IMG/VR virus record: IMGVR_UViG_3300046500_000236
Location: 1 to 64,000 of that record
Strand: one strand, 5' to 3'
DNA length: 64,000 nucleotides
DNA from: a virus
Translations under genes and position numbers: made by a program
Part shown: positions 5,828 to 59,307 of the stretch, one piece after another
Numbering within the stretch: position 1 is the first letter of the stretch
Layout of the letters: each line of letters starts with the position of its first letter
The notes under the pieces: model-generated
Seen by the model: the letters and a program-made list of their open reading frames with translations, nothing else
Database searches by the model: none
Told to the model about the DNA's origin: nothing

Positions 5828-6048
5828 GCTGCGCCCGCCAAAGGGGAAGCGTCGAGGATCTGCCAGCGATCGGGGTGCAGCTCCTGCCGTTCTTTGCGCT
5901 GAATGAGGCCATCCGGCCACTTGAGCCACAGCGCATCACCAATCTCCAGTTCCACGCTCAGCTGGATGTCCGATTTCAGATCGCGGACGGCGACCGATGG
6001 GTTGATGCGGGTGCTGCCTGCGTTGATGAACACGGGTTGTGGGTACAT
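5824..6048 (-). CDS. hypothetical protein
   Basis: 74-aa ORF coupled to its downstream gene. Confidence 0.55.
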   Translation of the reverse strand: MYPQPVFINAGSTRINPSVAVRDLKSDIQLSVELEIGDALWLKWPDGLIQRKERQELHPDRWQILDASPLAGAA

Positions 6049-6051
6049 AGG

Positions 6052-6225
6052 TCACGACATCTTCAAAGGTAATTGAGCTCGGGCGCATTCGTTGAAACCG
6101 TGAGGCAATGCCTTCACGGCCTTCTCGCAGTTACGGCGCCGACATTCCTCGCAGTAGGTGTAAGCGGCGGGGCGGCCTTGATTGCGCCACACCACGCGCT
6201 CCCCCAGGCAGTACCGACACTGCAT
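6052..6225 (-). CDS. small zinc-ribbon protein (57 aa), not in ORF track
   Basis: ATG at 6225 with AAGAGGGA RBS. Translation 'MQCRYCLGERVVW...YCEECRRRNCEK' has two CxxC pairs. Confidence 0.6.
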   Translation of the reverse strand: MQCRYCLGERVVWRNQGRPAAYTYCEECRRRNCEKAVKALPHGFNECARAQLPLKMS

Positions 6226-6237
6226 GGGTGGTCCCTC

Positions 6238-7263
6238 TTAGTCCGCGTACTGGGGGGAACGCTTCTGCATCATCAAGTCCGCGTATGCCCATCGGCGATC
6301 AGCGAAAGCGGCAGGGCTTTCGTCCTCGAGCGGGGTCAGCGGGCAGTGGATAGCGAAGTCGTCGCGCAGATCCTCCAGGTGCAATGGATCTGCAGCGGGC
6401 TTGGATGCCACGGCACCGTCGTAGATGTACTGAGGGCACTGAGCGATCATGAGTCCACCCTTCAATGCCATCTCGCGCAGGCGTGGGGACAGCAGGATGT
6501 GCGGCGACTCCGGCTCGCCCTCATCCTCGAGGCGCTTGACCATTTCGCCAAACGCAGCCCATTGCAGGTGACGGGCGTTTTCGTTGTGCATGTGTGCTCG
6601 CTGGCTGGCCAAGGTGTCCGGCGATGCACCTACGGGCAAAACATGAAAGTTTGCAGGCCGCTCGGCTGTACTGCCTTCCGGTGTATAGCGTGCGGACGGA
6701 TCGTGATACATGGTCCCCACCGCACAGGTCTGAGGCTCACCAATGCGCCGATCAGTCAGCGTGAGCGAGTGGATGTGATCGCCCTCCGAACGCGGAAGTA
6801 AATTTGAGGAGAAGTGGTGGCCCGGCCCCGAAATGCTGATTTCATGGGTATGGCTACCTGTAGGCGACTCTGCCAGTTCATCGCAAGGCAGATCCGCAAC
6901 CATTGGGACGGCTGCAGGCTGGGCGGTGACAGCCGCGGCCGCGATCCGAGCCAGGTCGGCATTGAGGGGAATGCTCTTTGACTGACTGATGCGCTTGTGA
7001 AGGGACAGTGAGCGCGCCATCGGGGTCTTGAGGAAGTCATTGATAACAGAGCGCAGCGCATACGGCGTCTTAACGGTGTCATTGGCGCCCTTCTGCAATG
7101 GAGCCCAGCCCGCGGACGTGCCCACAAACAGCAGCTGCCCGTGGTTGTTGCCCTTGCGCACCTTACAGCCGGTGTCTACCAGGTAGGCGCGAAAGTCCTC
7201 AATCTGATCCGGCCGGAGCAATCCGGTGTCGTTGTTCTTCAACATCTCGATAGCGTTGCTCAT
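6238..7263 (-). CDS. hypothetical protein
   Basis: 341-aa ORF in the operon between terS and terL. Confidence 0.7.
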   Translation of the reverse strand: MSNAIEMLKNNDTGLLRPDQIEDFRAYLVDTGCKVRKGNNHGQLLFVGTSAGWAPLQKGANDTVKTPYALRSVINDFLKTPMARSLSLHKRISQSKSIPLNADLARIAAAAVTAQPAAVPMVADLPCDELAESPTGSHTHEISISGPGHHFSSNLLPRSEGDHIHSLTLTDRRIGEPQTCAVGTMYHDPSARYTPEGSTAERPANFHVLPVGASPDTLASQRAHMHNENARHLQWAAFGEMVKRLEDEGEPESPHILLSPRLREMALKGGLMIAQCPQYIYDGAVASKPAADPLHLEDLRDDFAIHCPLTPLEDESPAAFADRRWAYADLMMQKRSPQYAD

Positions 7264-9136: not shown

Positions 9137-9901
9137 TCACACCTCAAACAGCATTCGCTGAATGTTCTGCTTGATCACTTGCGGCTCTACTTCGGGTTTC
9201 TCGACTTCATTGAGGGCCATGCGCTCGCGCTCTACCCGCTTGATGTGTCCCTTCATGCTGTCACGCAATTCAGTGACCAAACGGATGACCTTTGCGCCAT
9301 TTCGAACGTCCTGAAACTCAGGCTGACGGGCCACCACTTCCACGGCCTGTGCCAGCTCCTGGACCTTTTCGGCCACCTTGCCCAGCAAGACGCGATCGAC
9401 GCTGTAGCCTTCGAGCATGATCCCGCTGCGCTTGGACATGGCATTCACCATGTCGTGGAACTGGCTGCTCATCGCTTCGGCCATCACACCCACCAGCAAC
9501 GCCTGGTTGCCCTCCTCGGGCGACGACAGCGTGATGTCGTCATGCATGCCGAGCAGGTAATCGGTGGTGGTGCCGTAAAAACGCGCCAGTACGGTGAGGT
9601 TGTGCAGGCTTGGTGCGCGGTGGCCATTCTCGAACTGGCTGATCTGGGAGACGCCTTTATGCGACATGGCGATGCCGGCAGCGCTTTCCGAGTAGTGAGC
9701 GAGTTTGCGAGCACGGCGCAGACGTGGGCCTGTGATCGCCATCAATTCGGCTTCGAGCTTGCGAGCCCGTGCGTCGGGGCTCAAACCCTCACCCAAATCG
9801 ACGCTTTCATCAAAAAGGGATGCCACAGGGGCTGAATCGCCCTTGGCTTCCACTTTTCGGCCCTTGTTGGGCTCAGAAATACTATCCGCGTACATAGACA
9901 C
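9137..9901 (-). CDS. XRE/CI-type repressor candidate without autocleavage domain
   Basis: 254 aa. Central HTH 'SHKGVSQISQFENGHRAPSLHNLTVLARFYGTTTDYLLG'. No S24 'GDSM...K' domain. Monocistronic, with motif A copies at and upstream of its start and a terminator downstream. ATG at 9895 is an alternative start. Confidence 0.75.
   Translation of the reverse strand: MSMYADSISEPNKGRKVEAKGDSAPVASLFDESVDLGEGLSPDARARKLEAELMAITGPRLRRARKLAHYSESAAGIAMSHKGVSQISQFENGHRAPSLHNLTVLARFYGTTTDYLLGMHDDITLSSPEEGNQALLVGVMAEAMSSQFHDMVNAMSKRSGIMLEGYSVDRVLLGKVAEKVQELAQAVEVVARQPEFQDVRNGAKVIRLVTELRDSMKGHIKRVERERMALNEVEKPEVEPQVIKQNIQRMLFEV
9883..9894 (-). promoter_or_regulatory. 12-bp motif A copy overlapping the repressor start codon
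   Basis: The minus strand reads aTGTACGCGGATAg, and its ATG is the 9895 start. Confidence 0.6.
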
Positions 9902-23537: not shown

Positions 23538-23936
23538 CTACAGGTGGAAGGCCGACACCAGCACTGCGTCAACTTCACAATAATCTTCGTAGGGCAGAGC
23601 TTGGGCAGCTGACAGCCCCTGCAGGAAACCGCGCAAGCGCTCGATACCGATCCGCCCGGTGTCTGCATCTTCTGCGTAATCTGCCAACGTTTCGAGCGCG
23701 GATGGGTGATTCGATAACGCGGCGGCCACCTGAGCGAACACCTTGCGCAACGCTTCAACCTTGGCGGCATTGAGTTCGTCGCTGACGCTCTGACGCAGCG
23801 GGCCGGCCGCGATTGGGAAGTCGTCGGCCGTTATTTTGCCCGACTTAATTCCATCGATAGCCCGATCAAACGCAGCGTTCAAACTAACCTCATCACTTGC
23901 GAACTCGAGCAGCTTACGCATCTTCTCTCTGTCCAT
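23538..23936 (-). CDS. hypothetical protein, first gene of a minus-strand operon
   Basis: 132-aa ORF divergent from the 24005 gene. Confidence 0.6.
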   Translation of the reverse strand: MDREKMRKLLEFASDEVSLNAAFDRAIDGIKSGKITADDFPIAAGPLRQSVSDELNAAKVEALRKVFAQVAAALSNHPSALETLADYAEDADTGRIGIERLRGFLQGLSAAQALPYEDYCEVDAVLVSAFHL

Positions 23937-23977
23937 CGATCTGGCTCCTGTGGCTAAGCGGGTAATACGCCGACATA

Positions 23978-23993
23978 CTGTTTATTTGTACAG
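23978..23993. promoter_or_regulatory. LexA (SOS) box CTGT-N8-ACAG
   Basis: taCTGTTTATTTGTACAGct is a perfect CTGT-N8-ACAG with an AT-rich spacer. It lies in the 68-bp divergent intergenic region, 12 bp before the 24005 ATG. Confidence 0.75.
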
Positions 23994-24004
23994 CTGGTAT
24001 AGCC

Positions 24005-24253
24005 ATGTCCAAACTTCCCAAGTTCACCCCGCTTACCCCAGAGGAACTGCGCTCATTGTGGGCACGGCATCCAGATCCCGAGATTCGCCGCTTGGTGCTT
24101 GAAGTCGTGCGCTACCGCGACGTGATCTGTGAAACTGACAAGCTTTTTCAGACCATTCATCAAACATGGCGTGACATCAATGGCGGACACCTGGTCGCCA
24201 TTCAGCTCCTAAGCGTCCTGCTCAACAATGAGCGGGAACGACTGAGGTTTTGA
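24005..24253 (+). CDS. small protein under putative LexA control (antirepressor candidate)
   Basis: 82 aa. It is the only plus-strand gene within about 37 kb of minus-strand genes, and the SOS box overlaps its promoter region. Confidence 0.6.
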   Translation: MSKLPKFTPLTPEELRSLWARHPDPEIRRLVLEVVRYRDVICETDKLFQTIHQTWRDINGGHLVAIQLLSVLLNNERERLRF

Positions 24254-24598
24254 TCAGCGGCGCTTGTCGTGGTCGCGCAGGCTGTGGCGCACCACCCCCC
24301 AGACCTCGAACTCGTCGTTCTCCAGGATGTACCGCGGTGGATACTTCGGGTTTTCCGAGCGCATGACCAGCTCGCCCGCGTCGTAGTCCAGGCGCTTGCA
24401 CATCGGCTCACGGTTGATCACCGCAATGATGATATTGCCCTGAACGGGGTCCTTACCTTTGTCGACCACCAGCAGGTCACCGGAGAAGATCCCCGCGCCT
24501 TGCATGCTATCGCCCTCCACCCGCACCAGGTACGTCTGGGGCGCCCGGATGTTCATCAGCTCATCCAGCGATATAGGGACGGCCACGTCTTCAAGCAT
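24254..24598 (-). CDS. S24 peptidase, UmuD'-like (HumD-like), no DNA-binding or pro-segment
   Basis: 114 aa. 'GDSMQGAGIFSGDLLVVD' provides the Ser and 'CKRL' the Lys. The N-terminus starts roughly where processed UmuD' starts. Confidence 0.8.
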   Translation of the reverse strand: MLEDVAVPISLDELMNIRAPQTYLVRVEGDSMQGAGIFSGDLLVVDKGKDPVQGNIIIAVINREPMCKRLDYDAGELVMRSENPKYPPRYILENDEFEVWGVVRHSLRDHDKRR

Positions 24599-26307: not shown

Positions 26308-26982
26308 TTAACCTTTGAGAGGGGTAGGCTTTGCTGGTCTTTTTCTAGACGAGGCGGCCTGCTTATTGTCGTCATGCACCGTAAGGATGAATGGAGCAGG
26401 CACGGGCCGCAGTGCAGGCGAACCGATGAACTCCAAGTTTTCGATGTTCACATGTCGGCTGAATCTGACGCCGCTGCCGCCGCCCCCGATGATCGTCACA
26501 TTAATTAAGTCGGAGGACGTGGGCTCAGTTTGAACAAAAGCCTTGGGGTCCATGTGGAACCGTTCGGCAAGGGCAAAGGCCATCTTGTGGCTGATAGTGA
26601 CTTTGCCATTCAGCACTTTAGACACCGCTGTTTTGTCGCCGATTTCTGGCAGATCCGAACCGGTAAGGCCCAACGTATCCATCAGATCCTTGAGCAGCTG
26701 GACAGGCGTGGCTCGCGCCTTTGCCTCAGTATTGAACGCCTCAAACTGGGAGGACCCTTGTTCGTAAGCCAGAATCGCATCCTCCAACTCGACGAGAATG
26801 CGCTCCTCATACTTGTTCAGCTCGTGACCATCGGTTAGCTCGTCCAGCAGTACTGTCGCACGGGCGTAACCTTCTGCGTCCTTGATGCCGTCCACGAACT
26901 GGCCGCGTAGCTGCTCAAGCAGTACCTGCAGGTTTTCCAGCGCAGCAAGCACGCCTTGAGGGGTTTCGAGAGCCGTGTTCAT
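26308..26982 (-). CDS. higA: HigA-family antitoxin with about 70-aa C-terminal extension
   Basis: 'LGLTGSDLPEIGDKTAVSKVLNGKVTISHKMAFALAERFHMDPKAF' closely resembles E. coli HigA (YgjM). ATG at 26982 overlaps the higB stop (ATGA). Confidence 0.85.
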   Translation of the reverse strand: MNTALETPQGVLAALENLQVLLEQLRGQFVDGIKDAEGYARATVLLDELTDGHELNKYEERILVELEDAILAYEQGSSQFEAFNTEAKARATPVQLLKDLMDTLGLTGSDLPEIGDKTAVSKVLNGKVTISHKMAFALAERFHMDPKAFVQTEPTSSDLINVTIIGGGGSGVRFSRHVNIENLEFIGSPALRPVPAPFILTVHDDNKQAASSRKRPAKPTPLKG

Positions 26983-27311
26983 GGTTTTATGCCTCTTTTG
27001 TTGCTTGCGTACCACTCTGTCGCGGTGTCGTAGTCCGCATGGGTGTAGATGTGTTTCACGTAGACCTTTTGCCGAACGTAGTTGATGCCCGCGATCAGCC
27101 GCAGGTTGTTGCCGCCGATATCGATTGCTACCCACCCTTCAGCGGCGCGGTGCTTGAACAGGTCGATCGTATGGCCAAAGATCGACTGCAGATCGGTGTA
27201 GCTCGTGGGGGTTGCTGCTGTTAGCAGTCTGTGACATCGATCGAGCCCGCTCTTGTCATTTGGGTACAGCCGCGCAGCGTCGTCAAATCGCTGCTTAATC
27301 AATACGTCCAT
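26979..27311 (-). CDS. higB: HigB-family toxin (YgjN type)
   Basis: 110 aa. 'MDVLIKQRFDDAARLYP...IDIGGNNLRLIAGINYVRQKVYVKHIYTHADYD' parallels E. coli HigB. Confidence 0.85.
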   Translation of the reverse strand: MDVLIKQRFDDAARLYPNDKSGLDRCHRLLTAATPTSYTDLQSIFGHTIDLFKHRAAEGWVAIDIGGNNLRLIAGINYVRQKVYVKHIYTHADYDTATEWYASNKRGIKP

Positions 27312-33608: not shown

Positions 33609-34249
33609 GCTGCGCGCTCCTTTTCGTGGTCGACGATAATGGGAAGGTTCTGGGCAGCGTTGCGGCAGGCCAGCATCTGGTCATCGGTGTAGCCCCAGAT
33701 ATTGCCCTTGCCGAAAGTGCGTTCCAGTCCAATGAAGTGGAAGCCGATGCGGGTCCCCTTCATCACGTAGTCGCGCATCATCGTCACCAGATCGCGCAGC
33801 GTGCCGCCGTGGCTAAAGCCCGCCCACTCCCCGTTGTTGCGCAGCACTACCCGAACGCCAGATTTCGCGTCCATCAAGTAAACCGACTTGTCGTAAACGA
33901 GCCGCGCCACGCGATCGTGCGCCGGGCTGTACAGAAATCGCCGGCCGTGGCGAGCGATCACCTGAATAAGCTGATTGGCATACACACAGCGCACCTGACG
34001 GGCGAAGGCGTGGGTGCCGTGCTCGAGCATCCGGGACTCAGTGAACTTGTGCGCCAGCTGCTCGCACAGATTTCGCGTGTTGATCTGGCGCATTTGTTCG
34101 CCCGCAGCACCCGTCAGAATGGACGCTTTGAGCCCAGTGCGCAGGTGCTCCAGGGTCAAGAGCTCACCGCCATCGGTGATTGTTGTCGTCAAGGCAAAGC
34201 GTTCGGTGTCGCGCATGGCGCTGACCCAGTCGATTCCATCAATTGTCAT
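33605..34249 (-). CDS. hypothetical protein
   Basis: Start 'MTIDGIDWVSAMRD' at 34249. Confidence 0.6.
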   Translation of the reverse strand: MTIDGIDWVSAMRDTERFALTTTITDGGELLTLEHLRTGLKASILTGAAGEQMRQINTRNLCEQLAHKFTESRMLEHGTHAFARQVRCVYANQLIQVIARHGRRFLYSPAHDRVARLVYDKSVYLMDAKSGVRVVLRNNGEWAGFSHGGTLRDLVTMMRDYVMKGTRIGFHFIGLERTFGKGNIWGYTDDQMLACRNAAQNLPIIVDHEKERAA

Positions 34250-34541
34250 AACGCGTAGCCTCAAACATCCGTTTGTGTTTCGAGTAGTCCTGTACTGCAT
34301 CCCAAACCCGCAGAGCGGCATTGGCACACGCCAGGCGGTAGCCGGGAGCGCCCTTCACTTCGCCGCTGCTACCTATCGTCATCACGCCAGTAGCAGCGTG
34401 GTGAGCGATCGCAACGAAACAGCGGGCATCCTCCCCGGCCAGAAAGCTGGCCGTATAACTCACTGTGAACAGCATCGTGCCGATCGGCGTCTCGATGGCC
34501 GCGGTTCCCACCGCGATATCGCCATCAAGCTTGTGCATCAA
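34239..34541 (-). CDS. hypothetical protein
   Basis: 100-aa ORF. Confidence 0.55.
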   Translation of the reverse strand: MMHKLDGDIAVGTAAIETPIGTMLFTVSYTASFLAGEDARCFVAIAHHAATGVMTIGSSGEVKGAPGYRLACANAALRVWDAVQDYSKHKRMFEATRYDN

Positions 34542-37669: not shown

Positions 37670-38203
37670 ATGGCTCGTGGTGTGAACAAAGTGATCCTGG
37701 TGGGCACCTGTGGCCAGGACCCGGAAGTGCGGTATTTGCCCAATGGCAATGCTGTTTGCAGTCTCAGCCTGGCCACGAGTGAGCAGTGGACGGACAAACA
37801 AACCGGGCAGAAGGTCGAGAAAACCGAGTGGCACCGCGTGGTTATGTTCGGCAAAGTGGCGGAAATCGGCGGTGAGTACCTTCGCAAAGGCTCGCAAGTC
37901 TACATCGAGGGCAAGCTGCAAACCCGGGATTGGGAAAAGGACGGTGTGAAGCGCTACACCACCGAAATCATCGTGGACATGCAGGGCACCCTGCAGCTGC
38001 TCGGCGGCCGGCCTCAAGGGGACCAGAGCCAGCAGCAACAACGCCCACAATCGCAGCCTCAGCAGCAGCGCCCCCAGGCGCCTCGTCAGGATCAGCCGCA
38101 AGGGCAGCGCGGTACCGGATCACAGAACGGTGTGCCACCTGACTTTGAATCCTTTGACGACGACATACCGTTTGCCCCCCTCCCCTATCTGGCCGGGGCG
38201 TAA
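37670..38203 (+). CDS. ssb: single-stranded DNA-binding protein
   Basis: OB-fold N-terminus '[29 protein letters not shown]...TEWHRVV', a Gln/Pro-rich linker and 'DDDIPF' followed by 9 extra residues. Confidence 0.9.
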
Positions 38204-40904: not shown

Positions 40905-42125
40905 ATGGCCCTCACTCAAAAGTTTCTCGAAAGGATAGTTACCCCGGGAAAGTTTCCCGACAAACACGGATTGTCAATCAGAGTCTCGGCAGGTGGCAGC
41001 AAGGCCTGGATCGTGCGCTACACCTTCCAAGGCAGACGGCGCGATGACGGCTTAGGCAAGTGGCCGGATGTGTCCCTTGAAGACGCACGCGCTAGGGCCA
41101 TGGAAATCAAACTGTTAGCACATAAAGACATCGATCCTCGGCTTGATAAGGCTGAGCGCGCTCGGCTGGCCGTGACTTTCCAGGACGATGCCATGGCTTT
41201 CATTGAGCGGCACCGCCATGACTGGTCGCAGGCTCACGCCCACCAATGGGAAGCGTCGATGCGCGACCATATTTATCCAATAATTGGCAAAGTGCCGGTG
41301 TATGACATTTACACTGACACCGTGCGCCAGGTGCTCGACCCGATCTGGCGTGAAAAGCCTGAGACCGCACGCCGCGTACGCAATCGAATTGAGCGTGTAT
41401 TGGACTACTCCAAGGCCATGGGGCACCGGACAGGCGAGAACCCTGCGCGCTGGCGTGGCCACCTGCAAAACATCATGTCCAAGGTGCTCCCGACACCGAC
41501 GCCCTTGGAATCCATGGATTACCAGGTACTGCCGGCGTTCATGCGTAGGCTCGATGCCGAAGACACGCGCGCATCGCGGTGCCTGCAATTCCTTATATTG
41601 ACAGGGGCTCGCTCAGCCGAGGCCATCGGCGCGCGTTGGGAAGAAATCGACTTTGAACACGCTGTGTGGAATGTGCCGGCTGTGCGCATGAAAGGCCGTG
41701 AGCTGCACATGGTGCCGTTGAGCGAAGCTGCTTTGAACGTGCTTAAAGAGGTGGGAACCCGGGGCAAAAGTGAGTTCATTTTCTCCAATCCCAAGCACGA
41801 CAAGTCGCTGGCCAACAACGCCTTGCGCAGGCTCATGACCACGATGGGCGAGGACTGCACTGTGCATGGATTCCGCGCCACATTCCGCACCTGGCTGCAG
41901 GAGAAAACCGACTTTTCGGATGAATTGTGCGAAGTGGCTTTGTCGCATGTGGTGGGTAACTCCACCTCACGCCGGTATGCCCGCGGCGCCCAGCTCGACA
42001 AGCGCCGGCCCATGATGGAAAGGTGGGCAAGATTCGCCACCGAACGCACCATTGCGCCCCAGCCCCGCCCTAGCAAGCGGCCGCAAACGCCCATGGACAA
42101 GGCTGCACATCGTGTCGCCGTCTGA
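40905..42125 (+). CDS. int: tyrosine integrase (P4-like, DUF4102 N-terminus)
   Basis: 406 aa. 'GLSIRVSAGGSKAWIVRYTFQGRRRDDGLGKWPDVSLEDAR', a catalytic region with 'LTGARSAEA' and 'HGFRATFRTW', and 'ALSHVVGNSTSRRY'. Confidence 0.9.
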   Translation: MALTQKFLERIVTPGKFPDKHGLSIRVSAGGSKAWIVRYTFQGRRRDDGLGKWPDVSLEDARARAMEIKLLAHKDIDPRLDKAERARLAVTFQDDAMAFIERHRHDWSQAHAHQWEASMRDHIYPIIGKVPVYDIYTDTVRQVLDPIWREKPETARRVRNRIERVLDYSKAMGHRTGENPARWRGHLQNIMSKVLPTPTPLESMDYQVLPAFMRRLDAEDTRASRCLQFLILTGARSAEAIGARWEEIDFEHAVWNVPAVRMKGRELHMVPLSEAALNVLKEVGTRGKSEFIFSNPKHDKSLANNALRRLMTTMGEDCTVHGFRATFRTWLQEKTDFSDELCEVALSHVVGNSTSRRYARGAQLDKRRPMMERWARFATERTIAPQPRPSKRPQTPMDKAAHRVAV

Positions 42126-53747: not shown

Positions 53748-56700
53748 CTATTTCTCAATGACGACCAATCGCGCGTTCGCTCCAGTTTGCGCAAGAAGTG
53801 AGTTGTCTTGGAAAGTGCCCCCTTCCAGCGGCTCGACATCGGCGCCGTGCGAGTCCAGCCAGTCACGGAAGGCGACCGCTTTTTGGTCCTTGCCGAAGAA
53901 AACGCCCTCCCCGGCGATCGCAACCAAAGTGCCGCCGCTGGCCAGCATTCCGAAGGCGCGCATGATGTGGGCCGCATCCTGGCGATTGCTGAATGGCGGG
54001 TTCATCAAGATCGCCGGATAGGGCTCATCAGGCGTGAAGTGGTCAAAGTTGTGATCGACCACGTTGTAGCCCTTGGCGGTCAGGATGTTGCGCAGCTGGT
54101 CGGAGATTTCGATAACGTCGACCTGGCCACCGGCTGCCTTGGCCGCGTCGGCGAGATTGCCGTTGCCGGCGCTGGGCTCCAGTACCCGCATGCCGGGCTG
54201 AATGTGCGCCAGCTGCGCCATGCGCTGGGCAACGTGAGCAGGTGTAGGGAAAAAGTCGATGCCCACCTTCTGGCCGACGATGGCGCGCTCGGCCTTCTTC
54301 ACCGGATCTTCCTGGACTTTCTCCACCAGGTGGGGAATGAGCGCCTGGACTGCGGCGACAAGGCTCTGCGTGTCGGTGATACCCATGCGCGCCAGTCGGT
54401 CCGCTCGGCCGATCGCCTCCATGGGGTCCGTCAGATCCCAGCCTTCTTTCACCGCCTTGAGCTCGGCATAGGCCTTGCGGGTCAGGGCGATATCGGCGGC
54501 ATTCAGGGCAAACCGCTCAGGACCGTTACCCATCTTGACCAGGGCAGCGATCAGGCGGCTGTTCCCCTTGGCGGATTTGCGCGCCAGCGTGTCGGCCGCA
54601 CGGCTGTAACGGTTGCTCCAGGACTCGGGCCGTGGGAAGGCCAGATACTTGAGGTCGTTGTCTTCGAACGCACGCCCGCGGCGCGCATGCTTCGCCATGC
54701 CGTCCAGCTTTTCATCAGCATCGTTGATCGCTCGGCGCATGAGGCGCTGCAGCTCATCGAGCTGGGCGCGACTCGACAGCTTGGTCAGCATGCCCGCGGC
54801 GCCGACCTCGATCGAATCTGCAATACGGTTAAGGGTTTGACCAGCGGCCTTATTGGCTGCGGCTTTCTCCAATGCGTAGCCGGCCTCTCGTGACCGCTTG
54901 GCGGTGTTGGTCTTGCGATCGGCGTTCAAGCTGCCGTCTGCATCATCCACCGCCTTGTTGGCCACCTGGCGCAGTTTCTCCACCTGGTTGGCCAGCGCCT
55001 GCTTGGCGCGATCGGCGGCCAGCCGCTCAGCGGTGGCCACCGCCTCGGCTTGTTGCTCGGCGCTCATCACCACCGGCGTGGGTGCGGCCTGGATGTGTGC
55101 GGTATCGCCACCCAGGTGCTTTTCCCGGATGAAATAGCCGCCGTTCATCTTCCAGGTGTAAGGATCGATCGCTTTGGCCTGCTCGAGCGTCAGATCGGTC
55201 CGGATGATGCCGCGCAGCACCTTTTGCTTTTTGGTTGTGTACTCGATGATTTCCGGCACTGGCGCTACCGGCGCAGGCTCCTCAGTCACAGGTGCAGGCT
55301 GGTCGGTCTCACCGGTGGCTACCGGCTGTGCAGCTGTTCGAGCAGCACGCACTCGCTCAGACAAATGCGCCTCGGAGTACTCCAGCAGGTAGGCGTCGTA
55401 ACCCTCTCGATTATTGGAAACGCGCCCGCCCACCTTCGCCTCGAACTCGGCAACGCGCGCACCCGCCCAGCTGAGAAACCCATGGTTGCCGTCCTCGAAC
55501 GTCGGCAGATCCTCCAGCGTGTTCAGATATGCCTGATACACAGGATTACTAGACACGCCGGCGCCAGTGGTCTGCTCGTAGAACGCGCGTTTCTCTGCTT
55601 CCTGCTCGGCCAGTACCTTGGCCCGCTCAGCAGCATCGGCGGTAGCCTGCTCTGCCGCCTGCTGACGCTCACGCTCGGGCGCTGCCTCGCGATCGGCAGC
55701 ATTCGCTGCATTCTGGGCTTTGCGATCGGCAATCGCTTGTTGTTCGTCCTCGTAGGCCCGCACGTCATCGTCGGCAGCTGGTTCGCCGAACACGGTTTGG
55801 AATTTCTCGGGGCCCCACTCGCGCGCCATGATCCCTTTGAGGTTGGCCAGATCGCGCGCAACACCGGATGTCTCGCCCTGGTAGGTGATCGAAGCTCCAC
55901 CGCCCATTGCGCCGTGCTCATAAACAATGGCGCCGCTGGCCAGCGTCTGCGAACTGGTGGGAATGAACGTGGCCAGGCCTGCCTTGGCCTTGGGCAAAAC
56001 GATGCCGTCAGCAGTCTGGCTGACCTTGAGCCCGTCAAAATACGCGGCGGCGTAGGCTGCCAGCGCTACTGGATCACCGGACACCAGAACGGAACCATTT
56101 TTCTGTGCGGTTACGCCGGTGGCCAGCTCGGCAGCAACGGGTTCAATTTCGGACGGCTCCTCATCTTCAAGGAACAGGTTCAGCACCAGCGCGCCTACTG
56201 CATCGAGCATGACACCGCTGGAATCTTGTTCTACACTGGGGTCGAGCCGATGCCCTGAATTGTGATCAGGGGTCCGTTGGCTCGCTGGGGCGATGTCTTG
56301 CTCTGGTGGATGCCCTGAATTGTGATCAGGGGAACGTCCACTAGAATCGAGCATCGCCTTTTCTTTTGGCGGATCAATCAGCAGGTCGTAATAGAGCTGC
56401 CCGTTAGAGTCCTGTTCGACTACGACGCTTACGCTTATCTGCTCATCAGCCAACGCTACGAGACTTTTGAGGTAAAAGTAGCCAGATACGTCCGGCTTCT
56501 TGTCCTGCTTGTGGTTGTCCTCGCGCAACGCCACTTTCGCGGTTGAAATGATTTGCGCGATCGCATGCAGCAGCTTCAATTTTTTCGGGTTGGCGCTGAA
56601 TGCGATCGTTTCCTTGATGCCACGCTGCCGAATCTCGACCTGCGCCCCCAGCGCCGGGCAGTTGACCATCTGACCGCGCAGCCCTTCCAGGTAGGCCTTG

Positions 56701-56960
56701 GCGGCCGCACGCAATTCCTTCTTGCCCTCGGGCGTGTCAGGAAACTCGCCGAACTCTGTGCCCGTCAGGGCGATCGCGGGCGCCGCGGCGTCAGTGGCCC
56801 CCAGCTGAGCGCGCAGTTCCAGCACGCGGGTAGCCAGGCGCACGCTCATCAGGGGCGTCACGCCCTCCCCGGCCAGCTGCGCCCTCGCTTGCAGCAGCTC
56901 AGTGCTCAGGCGCGCTTGATCGCTCGGCGCCAGTGGGGCCGGTTGGTTCAGGTCAGTCAT
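53748..56960 (-). CDS. giant polyvalent protein with C-terminal amino (N6A/N4C) DNA methyltransferase
   Basis: 1070 aa. The C-terminal part has 'VLEPSAGNGNLA' (SAM motif I) and 'ILMNPPFS' (motif IV). The central part is long and Ala/Glu/Gln-rich. The N-terminus has a duplicated leader motif. Confidence 0.8.
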   Translation of the reverse strand: MTDLNQPAPLAPSDQARLSTELLQARAQLAGEGVTPLMSVRLATRVLELRAQLGATDAAAPAIALTGTEFGEFPDTPEGKKELRAAAKAYLEGLRGQMVNCPALGAQVEIRQRGIKETIAFSANPKKLKLLHAIAQIISTAKVALREDNHKQDKKPDVSGYFYLKSLVALADEQISVSVVVEQDSNGQLYYDLLIDPPKEKAMLDSSGRSPDHNSGHPPEQDIAPASQRTPDHNSGHRLDPSVEQDSSGVMLDAVGALVLNLFLEDEEPSEIEPVAAELATGVTAQKNGSVLVSGDPVALAAYAAAYFDGLKVSQTADGIVLPKAKAGLATFIPTSSQTLASGAIVYEHGAMGGGASITYQGETSGVARDLANLKGIMAREWGPEKFQTVFGEPAADDDVRAYEDEQQAIADRKAQNAANAADREAAPERERQQAAEQATADAAERAKVLAEQEAEKRAFYEQTTGAGVSSNPVYQAYLNTLEDLPTFEDGNHGFLSWAGARVAEFEAKVGGRVSNNREGYDAYLLEYSEAHLSERVRAARTAAQPVATGETDQPAPVTEEPAPVAPVPEIIEYTTKKQKVLRGIIRTDLTLEQAKAIDPYTWKMNGGYFIREKHLGGDTAHIQAAPTPVVMSAEQQAEAVATAERLAADRAKQALANQVEKLRQVANKAVDDADGSLNADRKTNTAKRSREAGYALEKAAANKAAGQTLNRIADSIEVGAAGMLTKLSSRAQLDELQRLMRRAINDADEKLDGMAKHARRGRAFEDNDLKYLAFPRPESWSNRYSRAADTLARKSAKGNSRLIAALVKMGNGPERFALNAADIALTRKAYAELKAVKEGWDLTDPMEAIGRADRLARMGITDTQSLVAAVQALIPHLVEKVQEDPVKKAERAIVGQKVGIDFFPTPAHVAQRMAQLAHIQPGMRVLEPSAGNGNLADAAKAAGGQVDVIEISDQLRNILTAKGYNVVDHNFDHFTPDEPYPAILMNPPFSNRQDAAHIMRAFGMLASGGTLVAIAGEGVFFGKDQKAVAFRDWLDSHGADVEPLEGGTFQDNSLLAQTGANARLVVIEK
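56249..56332. repeat. two exact 24-bp direct repeats 60 bp apart inside the 1070-aa ORF
   Basis: GATGCCCTGAATTGTGATCAGGGG at 56249-56272 and at 56309-56332. In frame they encode '(S/T)PDHNSGH' twice. Each copy holds a CCCTGA/TCAGGG dyad. Confidence 0.85.
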
Positions 56961-59274
56961 GTGTCACCCCAAAAATGGAATCCAGCAAGGCGGTATTGCC
57001 CATCGCTTTCTCAAAGGCTTTTTCGTCGCGCAGCGCCTTGAACACCTGGTCAAAGGCGGCGTTGATGCGTGTGCGCTCCTCGCCCTCGGGATAGGGCTTG
57101 AACGGGGCGCCTAGCTCGGGCATGAAGTGGTATTTGTTGTCGGCCAGGCAGCTCAGGTAGTCGTTCTTGCGGCCGATATCGGACAGCCGATCCTCCAGGT
57201 AGGACTGGAAGGCGCGGGCCGCCATTTCAAAGGGTTCCGACCAGTACTTGCCGGTGACGCCGTCATCGAGCTTTTGCGACTCAAGGAAGAAATTCGAGAC
57301 ACTGGCGCCGGACTTCACCTGTACCTCTGTCGACCCCTCTGGCGAGTAGTAGGCCGCCGCAATTTCGCGCCAGACCTTCTTTTGCTTGAGGTATGGTTTG
57401 GATTGCAGGTTGCGATAGGCCTTGTCGACCGCCAGCACAGCGTCGTGGACGTTCCCGGCGTTCTTGATATCCAGCGCAACCCCGCGCAGGGTTCGCCCGT
57501 CCAGGTTGAACCTGGCCTTTTCCAGCGCCATCGGCGAAAGCTTGATGGTCTCGATCAGGCGCACGCCGCCTGTGGTCAGGGTGTCTTTGAGCCCCTTGAA
57601 GGCATCGCGGATCGGCCCCTGTGGCATCAGCTCGGGATTAGCCGTCGCAAACTCGTCGCGGGCACCCTCCTCGCCTCGCAGCAGGCTGGGCATGATGTTG
57701 TCCAGGGCATGGAGTACTTCATGCCCTAAGCTGCCGCCGCCGTTCATCTTGGTCATGTTGATGACGCGCTCGACGGGGTCATAGGTGGCCATGGCCGCAC
57801 CCTTGCCACCGGTACCGCGCGCGCCGAACGCCATCGCAAGGCGCCCGCCGAAGCTCAAGTGATCGTCATTGACGCCCAGAACGTCGGCCATGTCCTGCAT
57901 GGCGCCTGCGGTCTGCTCTACGTGCCACTTGGCGCTGACAAAGTCGCCCAGTACCCAGTTACCCGACTGCACAGCCCGAAAGCCACACAGGCGTTCCAGA
58001 TCCTTGGTCGACGCCACCGCCACCGGCCGCCCGCCTACGCGCTCGAAGTTCTCGACCACCTTGAGGGTGAAGCTGATTTTCTTCTTGCTGGCGCGCTTGG
58101 GAGCTGCCTTCTCTTTTTCGGTCCAATCCCAGGACTTAGGCTCGCCGTTACGCGCGTTGGCCACATGGCCGGCAAAACTGTCGGAGCCCTGGCTGCCCTT
58201 CTTGCGGTACAGGGTCGCCTTGATGAATCGATCGCCCAAGGAATGCCAGGCACGCGCCTCGGGCGATTGCAGGTTGCGGGCCTTGGCCAGGTCGACAATG
58301 TCCTCACGGTCGGCATAGACGGTGCTGCGCTGCTTGCGCAGGGACTCCGTTTCGTCCTTGGTGGCGGCAATCTCATCGCCCCAGGCTTTCTGAGCGTCCG
58401 CATAGACGCGCTGGGTGTCTGCCACGGCCTGATCGTGCGCAGGATCGATCGACCAGCCACGCTTGCGGCGATTCTCCAGCGCCGACTGCGCCTTGTTGAA
58501 GTCGCTGTATGCGCTTTGCATTGCCTGATACAGCGCATCGCGCGCGTCGTCGATGGCCTTGGAGCGGTCACGCAGGGATTCCAGTTGTGCGGTCAAGCCG
58601 CGGTATTGCTCTGATTCGTCGGCATCGAGCCGCGCGCCGGTCAGCGTTTCCCCGATTTCGGTGAGCGTGCTGGTCACGTCGGCAACACTGCGGGCGGTCT
58701 CCAAGCGCGTACGCAGCGTTTCCAGGCCCAAGGCATAGCTCTGGCGCGCCTCCGGGCTGTCTTCGGCTGGCATGGCGCCTATAGCGGCGTACAGGCGGTC
58801 GATCAGATAGCCCACCTCTGGTGGCATGCCGTCGGCTTGCAAGCCCTCCCAGTCCACCTGGCCGAACAAGTTTGATTTCTTGATCAGCTCACGGGCCTGG
58901 CGCGGGTTCTCCTCGATCGCCTTGAAGTCGATATCACTGGTGCGCAGCATCTGGCCGGCCGCCCGTGCCGCCTTGATGGACGCTGCCGCCTGCTCTTTGC
59001 GCGATCCGGAGATGTAGCCGGTGTCCTTGTAGCGATAGTTCTCGCTGTTCGGGTCATCGCTCAAGCCGTCGTCAGCCTCATCGAGGCGGGCCTGTTCAGG
59101 GTTGATCGACGCCGGGGCCACGCGCACGACGCCGCCCAGCTGGGTGTAGAGCTCCAGCATTTCGGTGGTCACACGGGCTTGCTGCATGGGGTTCAAGGCG
59201 CCGGATTGCAGCTGCTCGCGCAGCGCTAGCATCTGGGTGGCTAGCCGGGCTTGTTCGAGGGGGTTTAGAGCCAT
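56953..59274 (-). CDS. giant protein with zincin-like HExxH motif
   Basis: About 773 aa from the ATG at 59274, which lies just after a terminator U-tract. Contains 'GGSLGHEVLHALD'. Its N-terminal duplicated leader motif is shared with the next ORF. Confidence 0.75.
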   Translation of the reverse strand: MALNPLEQARLATQMLALREQLQSGALNPMQQARVTTEMLELYTQLGGVVRVAPASINPEQARLDEADDGLSDDPNSENYRYKDTGYISGSRKEQAAASIKAARAAGQMLRTSDIDFKAIEENPRQARELIKKSNLFGQVDWEGLQADGMPPEVGYLIDRLYAAIGAMPAEDSPEARQSYALGLETLRTRLETARSVADVTSTLTEIGETLTGARLDADESEQYRGLTAQLESLRDRSKAIDDARDALYQAMQSAYSDFNKAQSALENRRKRGWSIDPAHDQAVADTQRVYADAQKAWGDEIAATKDETESLRKQRSTVYADREDIVDLAKARNLQSPEARAWHSLGDRFIKATLYRKKGSQGSDSFAGHVANARNGEPKSWDWTEKEKAAPKRASKKKISFTLKVVENFERVGGRPVAVASTKDLERLCGFRAVQSGNWVLGDFVSAKWHVEQTAGAMQDMADVLGVNDDHLSFGGRLAMAFGARGTGGKGAAMATYDPVERVINMTKMNGGGSLGHEVLHALDNIMPSLLRGEEGARDEFATANPELMPQGPIRDAFKGLKDTLTTGGVRLIETIKLSPMALEKARFNLDGRTLRGVALDIKNAGNVHDAVLAVDKAYRNLQSKPYLKQKKVWREIAAAYYSPEGSTEVQVKSGASVSNFFLESQKLDDGVTGKYWSEPFEMAARAFQSYLEDRLSDIGRKNDYLSCLADNKYHFMPELGAPFKPYPEGEERTRINAAFDQVFKALRDEKAFEKAMGNTALLDSIFGVTHD

Positions 59275-59275
59275 G

Positions 59276-59307
59276 AAAAAAGGGGCCTGCATAGTGTGCA
59301 AGGCCCC
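59276..59307 (-). terminator. intrinsic terminator between the 59330 gene and the 782-aa ORF
   Basis: GGGGCC/GGCCCC stem. A6 on the plus strand gives U6 immediately before the 59274 ATG on the minus strand. Confidence 0.55.

Follow-up and report, generated by a model that had tools for sequence, protein, structure and literature searches.

What is a single small gene doing on the plus strand, directly behind what reads as a LexA box, amid viral genes that run the other way? The question is raised by positions 23,978 to 24,253 of a 64,000-nucleotide stretch of viral DNA (IMG/VR record IMGVR_UViG_3300046500_000236, positions 1 to 64,000), which we analyzed over its whole length and call the window. 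The gene encodes a protein of 82 amino acids (aa), and a first-pass annotation made from the letters alone had proposed an SOS-inducible antirepressor or, failing that, another SOS-timed effector. We find that box and gene recur together across distantly related plasmids and phages, and tentatively place the protein among those that act on the host DNA damage response. The features at the locus are the following:

23951-23956, plus strand: putative -35 element TGGCTA, 17 nt upstream of the putative -10
23974-23979, plus strand: putative -10 hexamer CATACT, which runs into the left arm of the operator and belongs to its conserved flank
23976-23995: extended operator 20-mer TACTGTTTATTTGTACAGCT, the outlier site of the weight matrix scan
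23978-23993, no strand assigned: predicted LexA operator core CTGTTTATTTGTACAG, with a consensus match, the top matrix score, and conservation across family loci
24005-24253 including the stop codon, plus strand: 82-aa gene of an unannotated three-helix protein family, supported by homologs, substitution rates, and a structure model
23538-23936, minus strand: divergent open reading frame (ORF) of 132 aa with its ATG 42 nt from the operator, the first gene of the downstream minus-strand block

The operator and its promoter

CTGT-N8-ACAG is the LexA consensus of gamma- and betaproteobacteria, and the letters at 23978-23993 are those of a perfect box with an AT-rich spacer, as the first-pass annotation had stated: a CTGT arm (23978-23981) and an ACAG arm (23990-23993) enclose the spacer TTATTTGT, 7 of whose 8 positions are A or T. 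The box lies in a 68-bp gap between divergent genes (23937-24004), again as described, and only its distance to the ATG at 24005 needs correction from 12 to 11 nt. The claim that the 82-aa ORF is the sole plus-strand gene amid about 37 kb of minus-strand genes also holds as far as can be judged. Competing plus-strand ORFs at 18.8-19.5 kb and 27.5-29.7 kb were rejected as shadows of tightly packed minus-strand genes, and genuine plus-strand genes begin again at 37670 with SSB.

Taken by itself, the CTGT-N8-ACAG pattern is not significant in the window: it occurs once, 0.85 occurrences are expected by chance, and 55 of 100 shuffled windows contain at least one match. Looser CTG-N10-CAG matches number 36, and full CTGT and ACAG arms around an A/T-rich spacer are found at 23978-23993 alone. 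When the window was scanned with a weight matrix derived from 14 orthologous sites of other loci (the window itself being excluded), the extended site was the single outlier at 24.7 bits, followed by a runner-up at 10.0 bits.

The evidence that carries the case for LexA control is the conservation of the box beside relatives of the gene. A box is found just upstream of the start codon in all 24 loci that encode a family member, a set made up of the window, contigs from metagenomes, isolates, and viruses, plasmids, and two deposited phages. It has the form CTG(T/G)-N8-ACAG with an A/T-rich spacer and lies 26 to 44 nt before the start codon where this distance was tabulated. These loci span gamma- and betaproteobacteria of the genera Pseudomonas, Burkholderia, Paraburkholderia, and Alcaligenes, with protein identities to the window protein down to 28% and surrounding DNA that cannot be aligned. 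Where two Burkholderia plasmids encode a long form of the protein with an extra N-terminal domain, the box has shifted along with the upstream start codon. Within the 289 kb of DNA that we fetched, all 22 family genes scanned have a box in the 75 nt before them, just 5 boxes lie elsewhere, and the background amounts to about 0.0013 per 75-nt window. Because this phylogenetic footprint is strong across diverged loci, the box appears to be a genuine LexA-type operator under selection, and we are highly confident that LexA controls the 82-aa gene, much as the first-pass annotation had tied the two together. Binding by LexA and induction during the SOS response are what the consensus and the footprint would predict.

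The same type of box also lies directly upstream of a canonical SOS operon, umuD-umuC-SRAP, on a Pseudomonas plasmid. One further candidate family locus (L014) was rejected as a spurious 28-residue match. Individual loci show peculiarities around the operator. The family gene of one viral contig (L011, at about 5995-6250) appears frameshifted after about 10 codons, either by assembly error or as a pseudogene, and its LexA box is intact. The annotated start of gp27 in Burkholderia phage KS9 (L033, locus coordinate 2275) falls within the LexA box at 2273-2288, and the true start is probably a GTG about 10 nt past the box. In the stretch that separates the LexA box from the divergent gene (60-130 nt upstream of the family gene), three loci (L003, L004, and L012) have two copies of the palindrome ATAGGCACA(A/T)GTGCCTAT, and two (L001 and L011) have the palindrome TTTACACC(T/A)GGTGTAAA; both are probably operators of other regulators.

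The flank of the operator is conserved as well. The three bases before the CTG are A, T, and A in 14, 16, and 16 of 16 loci, respectively, and the resulting nATACT is a plausible -10 overlapping the left arm of the operator. In the closer Pseudomonas loci, a motif similar to the putative -35 of the window, T(G/A)GC(T/C)A, precedes nATACT by 17-18 nt, and the phages KS9 and Magia have a clearer promoter (TTGACG-17-GATACA) that adjoins the box. A simple consensus promoter scan returned nothing at its threshold on either strand.

Because any promoter within the 68-bp gap must overlap the operator, co-regulation of the divergent operon starting at 23936 by the same box is plausible. Some support for such gating comes from the spacing at three loci with a single box and a divergent SRAP gene (L017, KS9, and Magia), where the box lies 50-56 nt upstream of the SRAP start codon; the corresponding distance to the 23936 ATG in the window is 42 nt. 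The minus-strand genes past 23936 could equally be transcribed via read-through from upstream, since a terminator scan found no minus-strand terminator between 24254 and 23936. The divergent 132-aa protein itself has no family match in Pfam, PHROG, or PADLOC scans.

The protein family and its carriers

The 82-aa ORF is a real protein gene under purifying selection. Pairwise ratios of nonsynonymous to synonymous substitution rates (dN/dS) against relatives are 0.13-0.29 with saturated synonymous sites, and the family shows a conserved length and invariant residues. Seven close homologs of 82-83 aa share 57-65% identity with the protein, and in a profile search of 1.8 billion representatives, 164 clusters passed E<=1e-3 and 51 passed E<=1e-10, with lengths mostly of 80-110 aa. 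An AlphaFold2 model built on a 60-sequence alignment has a predicted local distance difference test score (pLDDT) of 89.9 and a predicted template modeling score (pTM) of 0.69. It predicts helices at residues 12-21, 25-57, and 62-79 with a turn located at a conserved Gly-Gly, and it supersedes an earlier 8-sequence model that was a single long helix (pTM 0.40).

The statement of the first-pass annotation that the protein has no recognized motif is upheld. Pfam, NCBIfam, and PADLOC gave no match for it; a Pfam scan that also covered 60 family members was empty at E<=0.01; PADLOC defense models matched neither the protein nor 9 neighbors; and Foldseek searches of both models against BFVD and the PDB returned nothing at E<=0.001. 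Sequence profile matches in the PDB were to designed helical repeats alone and were judged to be low-complexity artifacts. No membrane segment was found in the protein. Matches do exist to two PHROG families of unknown function, phrog_17852 (28 of 60 members) and phrog_32761.

Longer relatives come in two forms. In one, the domain is duplicated in tandem, which suggests that the single-domain form is probably a dimer; in the other, a further N-terminal domain without annotation is present. This N-terminal domain of the long form ("WEYxWEYTDLDDG...") occurs in Burkholderia phages and plasmids, and the members noted for tandem duplication or the long form are P0032, P0107, P0118, P0119, and P0124 and those of loci L028, L029, L033, and L034. 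Every source that names a family member calls it a "hypothetical protein", and our literature search found no paper describing the family or its LexA-box cassette. Annotation pipelines often overlook the gene or place it on the wrong strand: many Pseudomonas aeruginosa plasmid records have no feature under the match, and at L021 (NZ_CP070504, 7001-7243), an antisense ORF of 70 aa is annotated in its place.

The family is found mostly on plasmids. Searches with tblastn located it on 106 plasmid records, of which 84 are from Pseudomonas, 13 from Burkholderia, 5 from Caballeronia, and 4 from Paraburkholderia. The same kind of search in a phage collection gave no match with the window protein or with P0061 and found KS9 and Magia with the more divergent P0037; a megablast of the window at 22-27 kb against this collection was empty. 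Plasmid pP33-2 (L026), which we examined in full, encodes blaKPC-2, a coupling protein, a type IV secretion system ATPase, a topoisomerase, ParA, and anti-CRISPR genes, and has no phage structural genes. Further carriers are a chromosomal island with an integrase, AlpA, and PemK/MazE, a prophage remnant, a PolA-type phage, prophage ends beside lysis genes, and plasmid regions beside repA-trfB-parB-parA. Judged from these sequences, operator and gene form a real and previously undescribed cassette that is portable, horizontally mobile, and predicted to be under SOS control.

Genomic context and the role of the protein

The cassette runs opposite to both flanking genes in about 15 of the 19 loci with clear neighbors, and the 3' ends often abut or overlap, as at 24253/24254 in the window and with 4-nt overlaps in L003 and L008. 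Co-directional contexts do exist (L019 and L020). A terminator scan found no convincing terminator past the 82-aa ORF. The simplest reading of this orientation against the grain is insulation from read-through of the element: operon read-through cannot express the gene, which leaves LexA as its sole gate and points to a potent product. As an alternative or additional effect, transcription induced by SOS may converge on the neighbors. At L031, a Paraburkholderia plasmid (3501-4987), the cassette converges directly on the repA-trfB-parB-parA operon, and SOS-induced antisense transcription could there reach replication and partition genes.

The neighbors of the cassette that recur and have an annotation include genes of the DNA damage response, with SOS and translesion functions. 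A SRAP gene adjoins the family gene divergently in Pseudomonas sp. SCB32 (L017), KS9, and Magia and in the same operon in Alcaligenes aquatilis (L020). Published work links SRAP to SOS and places it beside UmuDC and in prophages of Burkholderia, with no description of the small partner gene (PMC3765255). A gene for a UmuD'-like protein adjoins the cassette in the window and in L008; a specific partnership with this neighbor as a general rule was rejected, as the adjacency is seen only in the window and this syntenic locus. On pP33-2, RadC is encoded three genes from the family gene and SRAP about 6.7 kb away. This SRAP gene (33638-34330) was detected by six-frame search, is missing from the PLSDB gene table, and adjoins the anti-CRISPR genes acrE1 and acrF3. 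A six-frame search of the 64 kb of the window found no SRAP. Toxin-antitoxin modules are also frequent nearby (HigBA, MqsRA, PemK/MazE, VapC, and ParE).

The element in the window is distantly P1-like, and it is best read as a phage-plasmid because its closest sequenced relative is a circular plasmid with ParA: the 94.7-kb pKF715C of Pseudomonas putida KF715, which is 79% identical across two-thirds of the structural region. Searching with P1 ORFs (tblastn), we found homologs of PacB (35% identity), Ref (35%), SSB (55%), Tub (27%), and DdrB (40%) and none of C1, Coi, or Lxc. Also encoded are a tail sheath of P1 type, a PmgG-like protein, DarB-like giant methyltransferases, and the Ref-family nuclease. 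Other genes of the window that bear on the cassette or on the nature of the element are these:

9137-9901: helix-turn-helix (HTH) protein of 254 aa, the repressor candidate, with an HTH_3 match at residues 61-116 only
24254-24598, minus strand: UmuD'-like (HumD-like) S24-only protein (Peptidase_S24 1.5e-24; phrog_811 "UmuD-like" 7.7e-34)
26308-27311, minus strand: coupled pair of a HigB toxin (26979-27311) and a HigA-like HTH antitoxin (probable start 26982)
40905-42125: tyrosine recombinase
53748-56960 and 56953-59301, minus strand: DarB-like giant methyltransferase/helicase-type protein as two overlapping ORFs of 1070 and 782 aa

The stop codon of the UmuD'-like gene abuts that of the convergent 82-aa gene, a layout shared with L008. 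Its product aligns to UmuD' (1UMU) from about UmuD residue 30 and lacks the Cys-Gly cleavage site, keeps the Ser/Lys dyad with GDSM and the Lys conserved, and resembles the pre-truncated HumD of P1. The DNA of this gene is related to umuD of a block of umuD-umuC-SRAP and HigBA on plasmid pSDM007, and the HigB-HigA pair is likewise present in both L008 and pSDM007. No ORF of the size of a UmuC Y-family polymerase was seen in the window. This UmuD'-like neighbor is context of the cassette, not a proven part of it.

Which function fits a gene with this control and this distribution? Tentatively, and with a little less than even confidence, we favor a portable SOS-gated cassette whose small, dimeric helical protein acts on the host DNA damage response. 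The cassette would be a self-contained, mobile unit in which a small gene is served by a sigma-70-type promoter and a single LexA operator. In an undamaged cell, a dimer of host LexA on CTGT-N8-ACAG would cover the putative -10 (CATACT) together with the expected transcription start and keep the gene off; DNA damage would activate RecA and thereby trigger LexA self-cleavage, and the 82-aa protein would be made. Insertion against the neighbors would prevent expression by read-through, so that LexA would be the only gate. The product would be a compact three-helix protein, probably dimeric, and its target most likely a conserved component of the host damage response such as RecA, LexA, translesion synthesis, or SRAP, making it a functional analogue of DinI, ImpC, or PsiB-type modulators and not an antirepressor of the phage's repressor.

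Gene context is what points to such a target, first because the cassette moves among elements with unrelated regulators and keeps its own LexA operator, and also because SOS and translesion genes (SRAP and UmuD'-like) repeatedly turn up beside it. More specifically, the family may be a new one of mobile-element SOS-regulon proteins in Pseudomonas and Burkholderiales that modulate RecA, LexA, translesion synthesis, or SRAP, always bring their own LexA operator along, and fill the niche of DinI and PsiB in enterobacteria; in this specific form we consider the proposal a real possibility but a doubtful one. If such modulation is the function, it is relevant to the influence of plasmids and phages on mutagenesis and on survival under fluoroquinolones or UV, and clinical blaKPC-2 plasmids and phage-plasmids could reshape the host response to DNA-damaging antibiotics in terms of mutagenesis, survival, or element transfer.

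A number of observations weigh against an action on the damage response. SRAP, UmuD', or RadC lies nearby in only about 7 of 24 loci, and these are not all independent, given the synteny of the window with L008 and the kinship between KS9 and Magia; most neighbors are unannotated small genes or toxin-antitoxin pairs. Neither homology nor experiment names a target, and the helical bundle of the model is generic, without a structural neighbor; the protein is not acidic like DinI, and nothing physically ties it to RecA or LexA. The promoter hexamers of the window are weak as well, with 7 of 12 consensus matches and a score under the scan threshold. Finally, the element of the window is P1-like, the LexA-gated small protein of P1 is an antirepressor, and the 82-aa protein bears a weak colinear resemblance to the N-terminus of that protein, Coi (P ~0.01).

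These last points belong to the proposal of the first-pass annotation, according to which LexA cleavage would release the 82-aa protein to inactivate a non-cleavable repressor, such as the 254-aa HTH protein, and so start lytic growth. The P1 precedent is genuine: its record (AF234172) has an annotated LexA site (46-65) that overlaps the promoter P2coi, and Coi inactivates C1 (PMC4713147). The window element is a distant relative of P1. The repressor candidate indeed has no cleavage domain, as had been claimed: it matches HTH_3 only and aligns solely to the HTH part of the CI-like profile phrog_4, and the UmuD'-like protein at 24254-24598 is the sole S24 domain in the 64 kb of the window, where no second cleavable repressor combining HTH and S24 was found using LexA and lambda CI sequences as queries. 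Tight insulation would suit a potent switch protein, and antirepressors gated by LexA are well known and able to target several repressors in trans (PMC3121763). The resemblance to Coi is the pattern F-x-P-x-T-x-acid-acid-[LV]-R, a lead and not evidence; hhalign gave probabilities of 4.6% with the single Coi sequence and 3.9% profile to profile, where the Coi profile has little depth, as no Coi homolog falls below 67% identity to P1 Coi. Distribution speaks against the proposal: the family does not follow a cognate repressor on temperate phages but is found on 106 plasmid records versus 4 with homologs of the 254-aa candidate, and it also occurs on a plasmid without phage genes (pP33-2), in chromosomal remnants, and on islands. 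Conversely, pKF715C keeps a homolog of the HTH protein (58% identity) yet has neither family gene nor LexA box in its syntenic early region, and at L003, an S24-containing protein, possibly a cleavable CI-type repressor, is encoded about 6 kb from the cassette. No match to antirepressor families of Pfam or PHROG was found either. Distribution, pP33-2, pKF715C, and the Coi comparison together leave the antirepressor unsupported and disfavored, and we regard it as unlikely; the fallback of another SOS-timed effector fits better. Were the protein nonetheless an antirepressor or derepressor of broad range, many unrelated elements would have their activation coupled to SOS through it.

The insulated orientation with LexA as sole gate in about 15 of 19 loci would also suit an SOS-timed inhibitor of growth or division, or a toxin, that blocks a host process such as the FtsZ ring in the manner of SulA, lambda Kil, or DicB and whose toxicity would demand strict insulation. 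Many SOS division inhibitors are small and lineage-specific, the toxin-antitoxin modules listed above are often nearby, and a broad, host-independent spread fits a conserved host target. Yet the protein has no membrane segment and no similarity to a known inhibitor or toxin, no cognate antidote gene is consistently adjacent, and the SRAP and UmuD' pairings indicate DNA transactions rather than division, leaving this explanation distinctly unlikely. The main role might instead lie in cis, with SOS-induced antisense transcription into the neighboring operon acting through interference or antisense RNA and the peptide being secondary. Convergent genes that abut or overlap without a convincing terminator after the ORF, the recurrent (-,+,-) arrangement, and the convergence on repA-trfB-parB-parA at L031 would suit this explanation, but strong purifying selection acts on the protein, its length and invariant residues are conserved, the cassette is kept in the co-directional loci L019 and L020, and the genes that it converges upon are unrelated between loci. 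We consider a primary role in cis very improbable, and a modulator of the host DNA damage response remains the function that we tentatively prefer.

Comparison with known systems

Among characterized genes, coi of P1 is similar in being a small gene (69 aa versus 82 aa) on a P1-type phage-plasmid next to a LexA site, which in coi overlaps the promoter. The main repressor of P1 is non-cleavable, and PacB, Ref, SSB, Tub, and DdrB are common to P1 and the window. However, the two proteins have no significant sequence relationship, and the window lacks C1, Coi, and Lxc. While coi adjoins c1 in the immunity region and is also controlled by C1, the cassette of the window stands alone against an early operon, and the Coi family is limited to close relatives of P1 whereas the 82-aa family is found in many types of elements.

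Tum of coliphage 186, GfoA/GfhA of the Gifsy phages, and AntC of N15 share with the cassette that a single LexA box gates a small phage gene. The products of such LexA-repressed antirepressors act post-translationally, and some are encoded at a long distance from the immunity region and work in trans (PMC3121763). Unlike them, the 82-aa family has no DinI/Tum, Ant, or KilAC domain by Pfam and PHROGs, and those genes are confined to temperate phages whereas the family is mostly on plasmids.

DinI and ImpC are LexA-regulated proteins of about 80 aa that tune RecA and are encoded as prophage morons and in plasmid impCAB operons beside UmuD and UmuC homologs; PsiB is an SOS inhibitor from the leading region of plasmids. 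The 82-aa family matches these modulators in the size of the protein, in LexA gating, in being carried by mobile elements, and in adjoining UmuD' or SRAP genes. It differs from DinI in that the model is all-helical rather than alpha/beta, that the protein is not acidic, and that there is no match to the Pfam DinI family, and it has no match to Pfam PsiB either. SRAP (YedK/HMCES) modules resemble the cassette insofar as SRAP and the family gene lie in one operon or flank a common intergenic region with a LexA box at L017, L020, KS9, and Magia, but the 64 kb of the window and most family loci are without SRAP. Mobile elements are known to carry accessory genes gated by LexA, such as antirepressors, DinI-like morons, colicins, and plasmid umuDC, and within this kind of system, the 82-aa family is a new protein family that is widespread and often mis-annotated.

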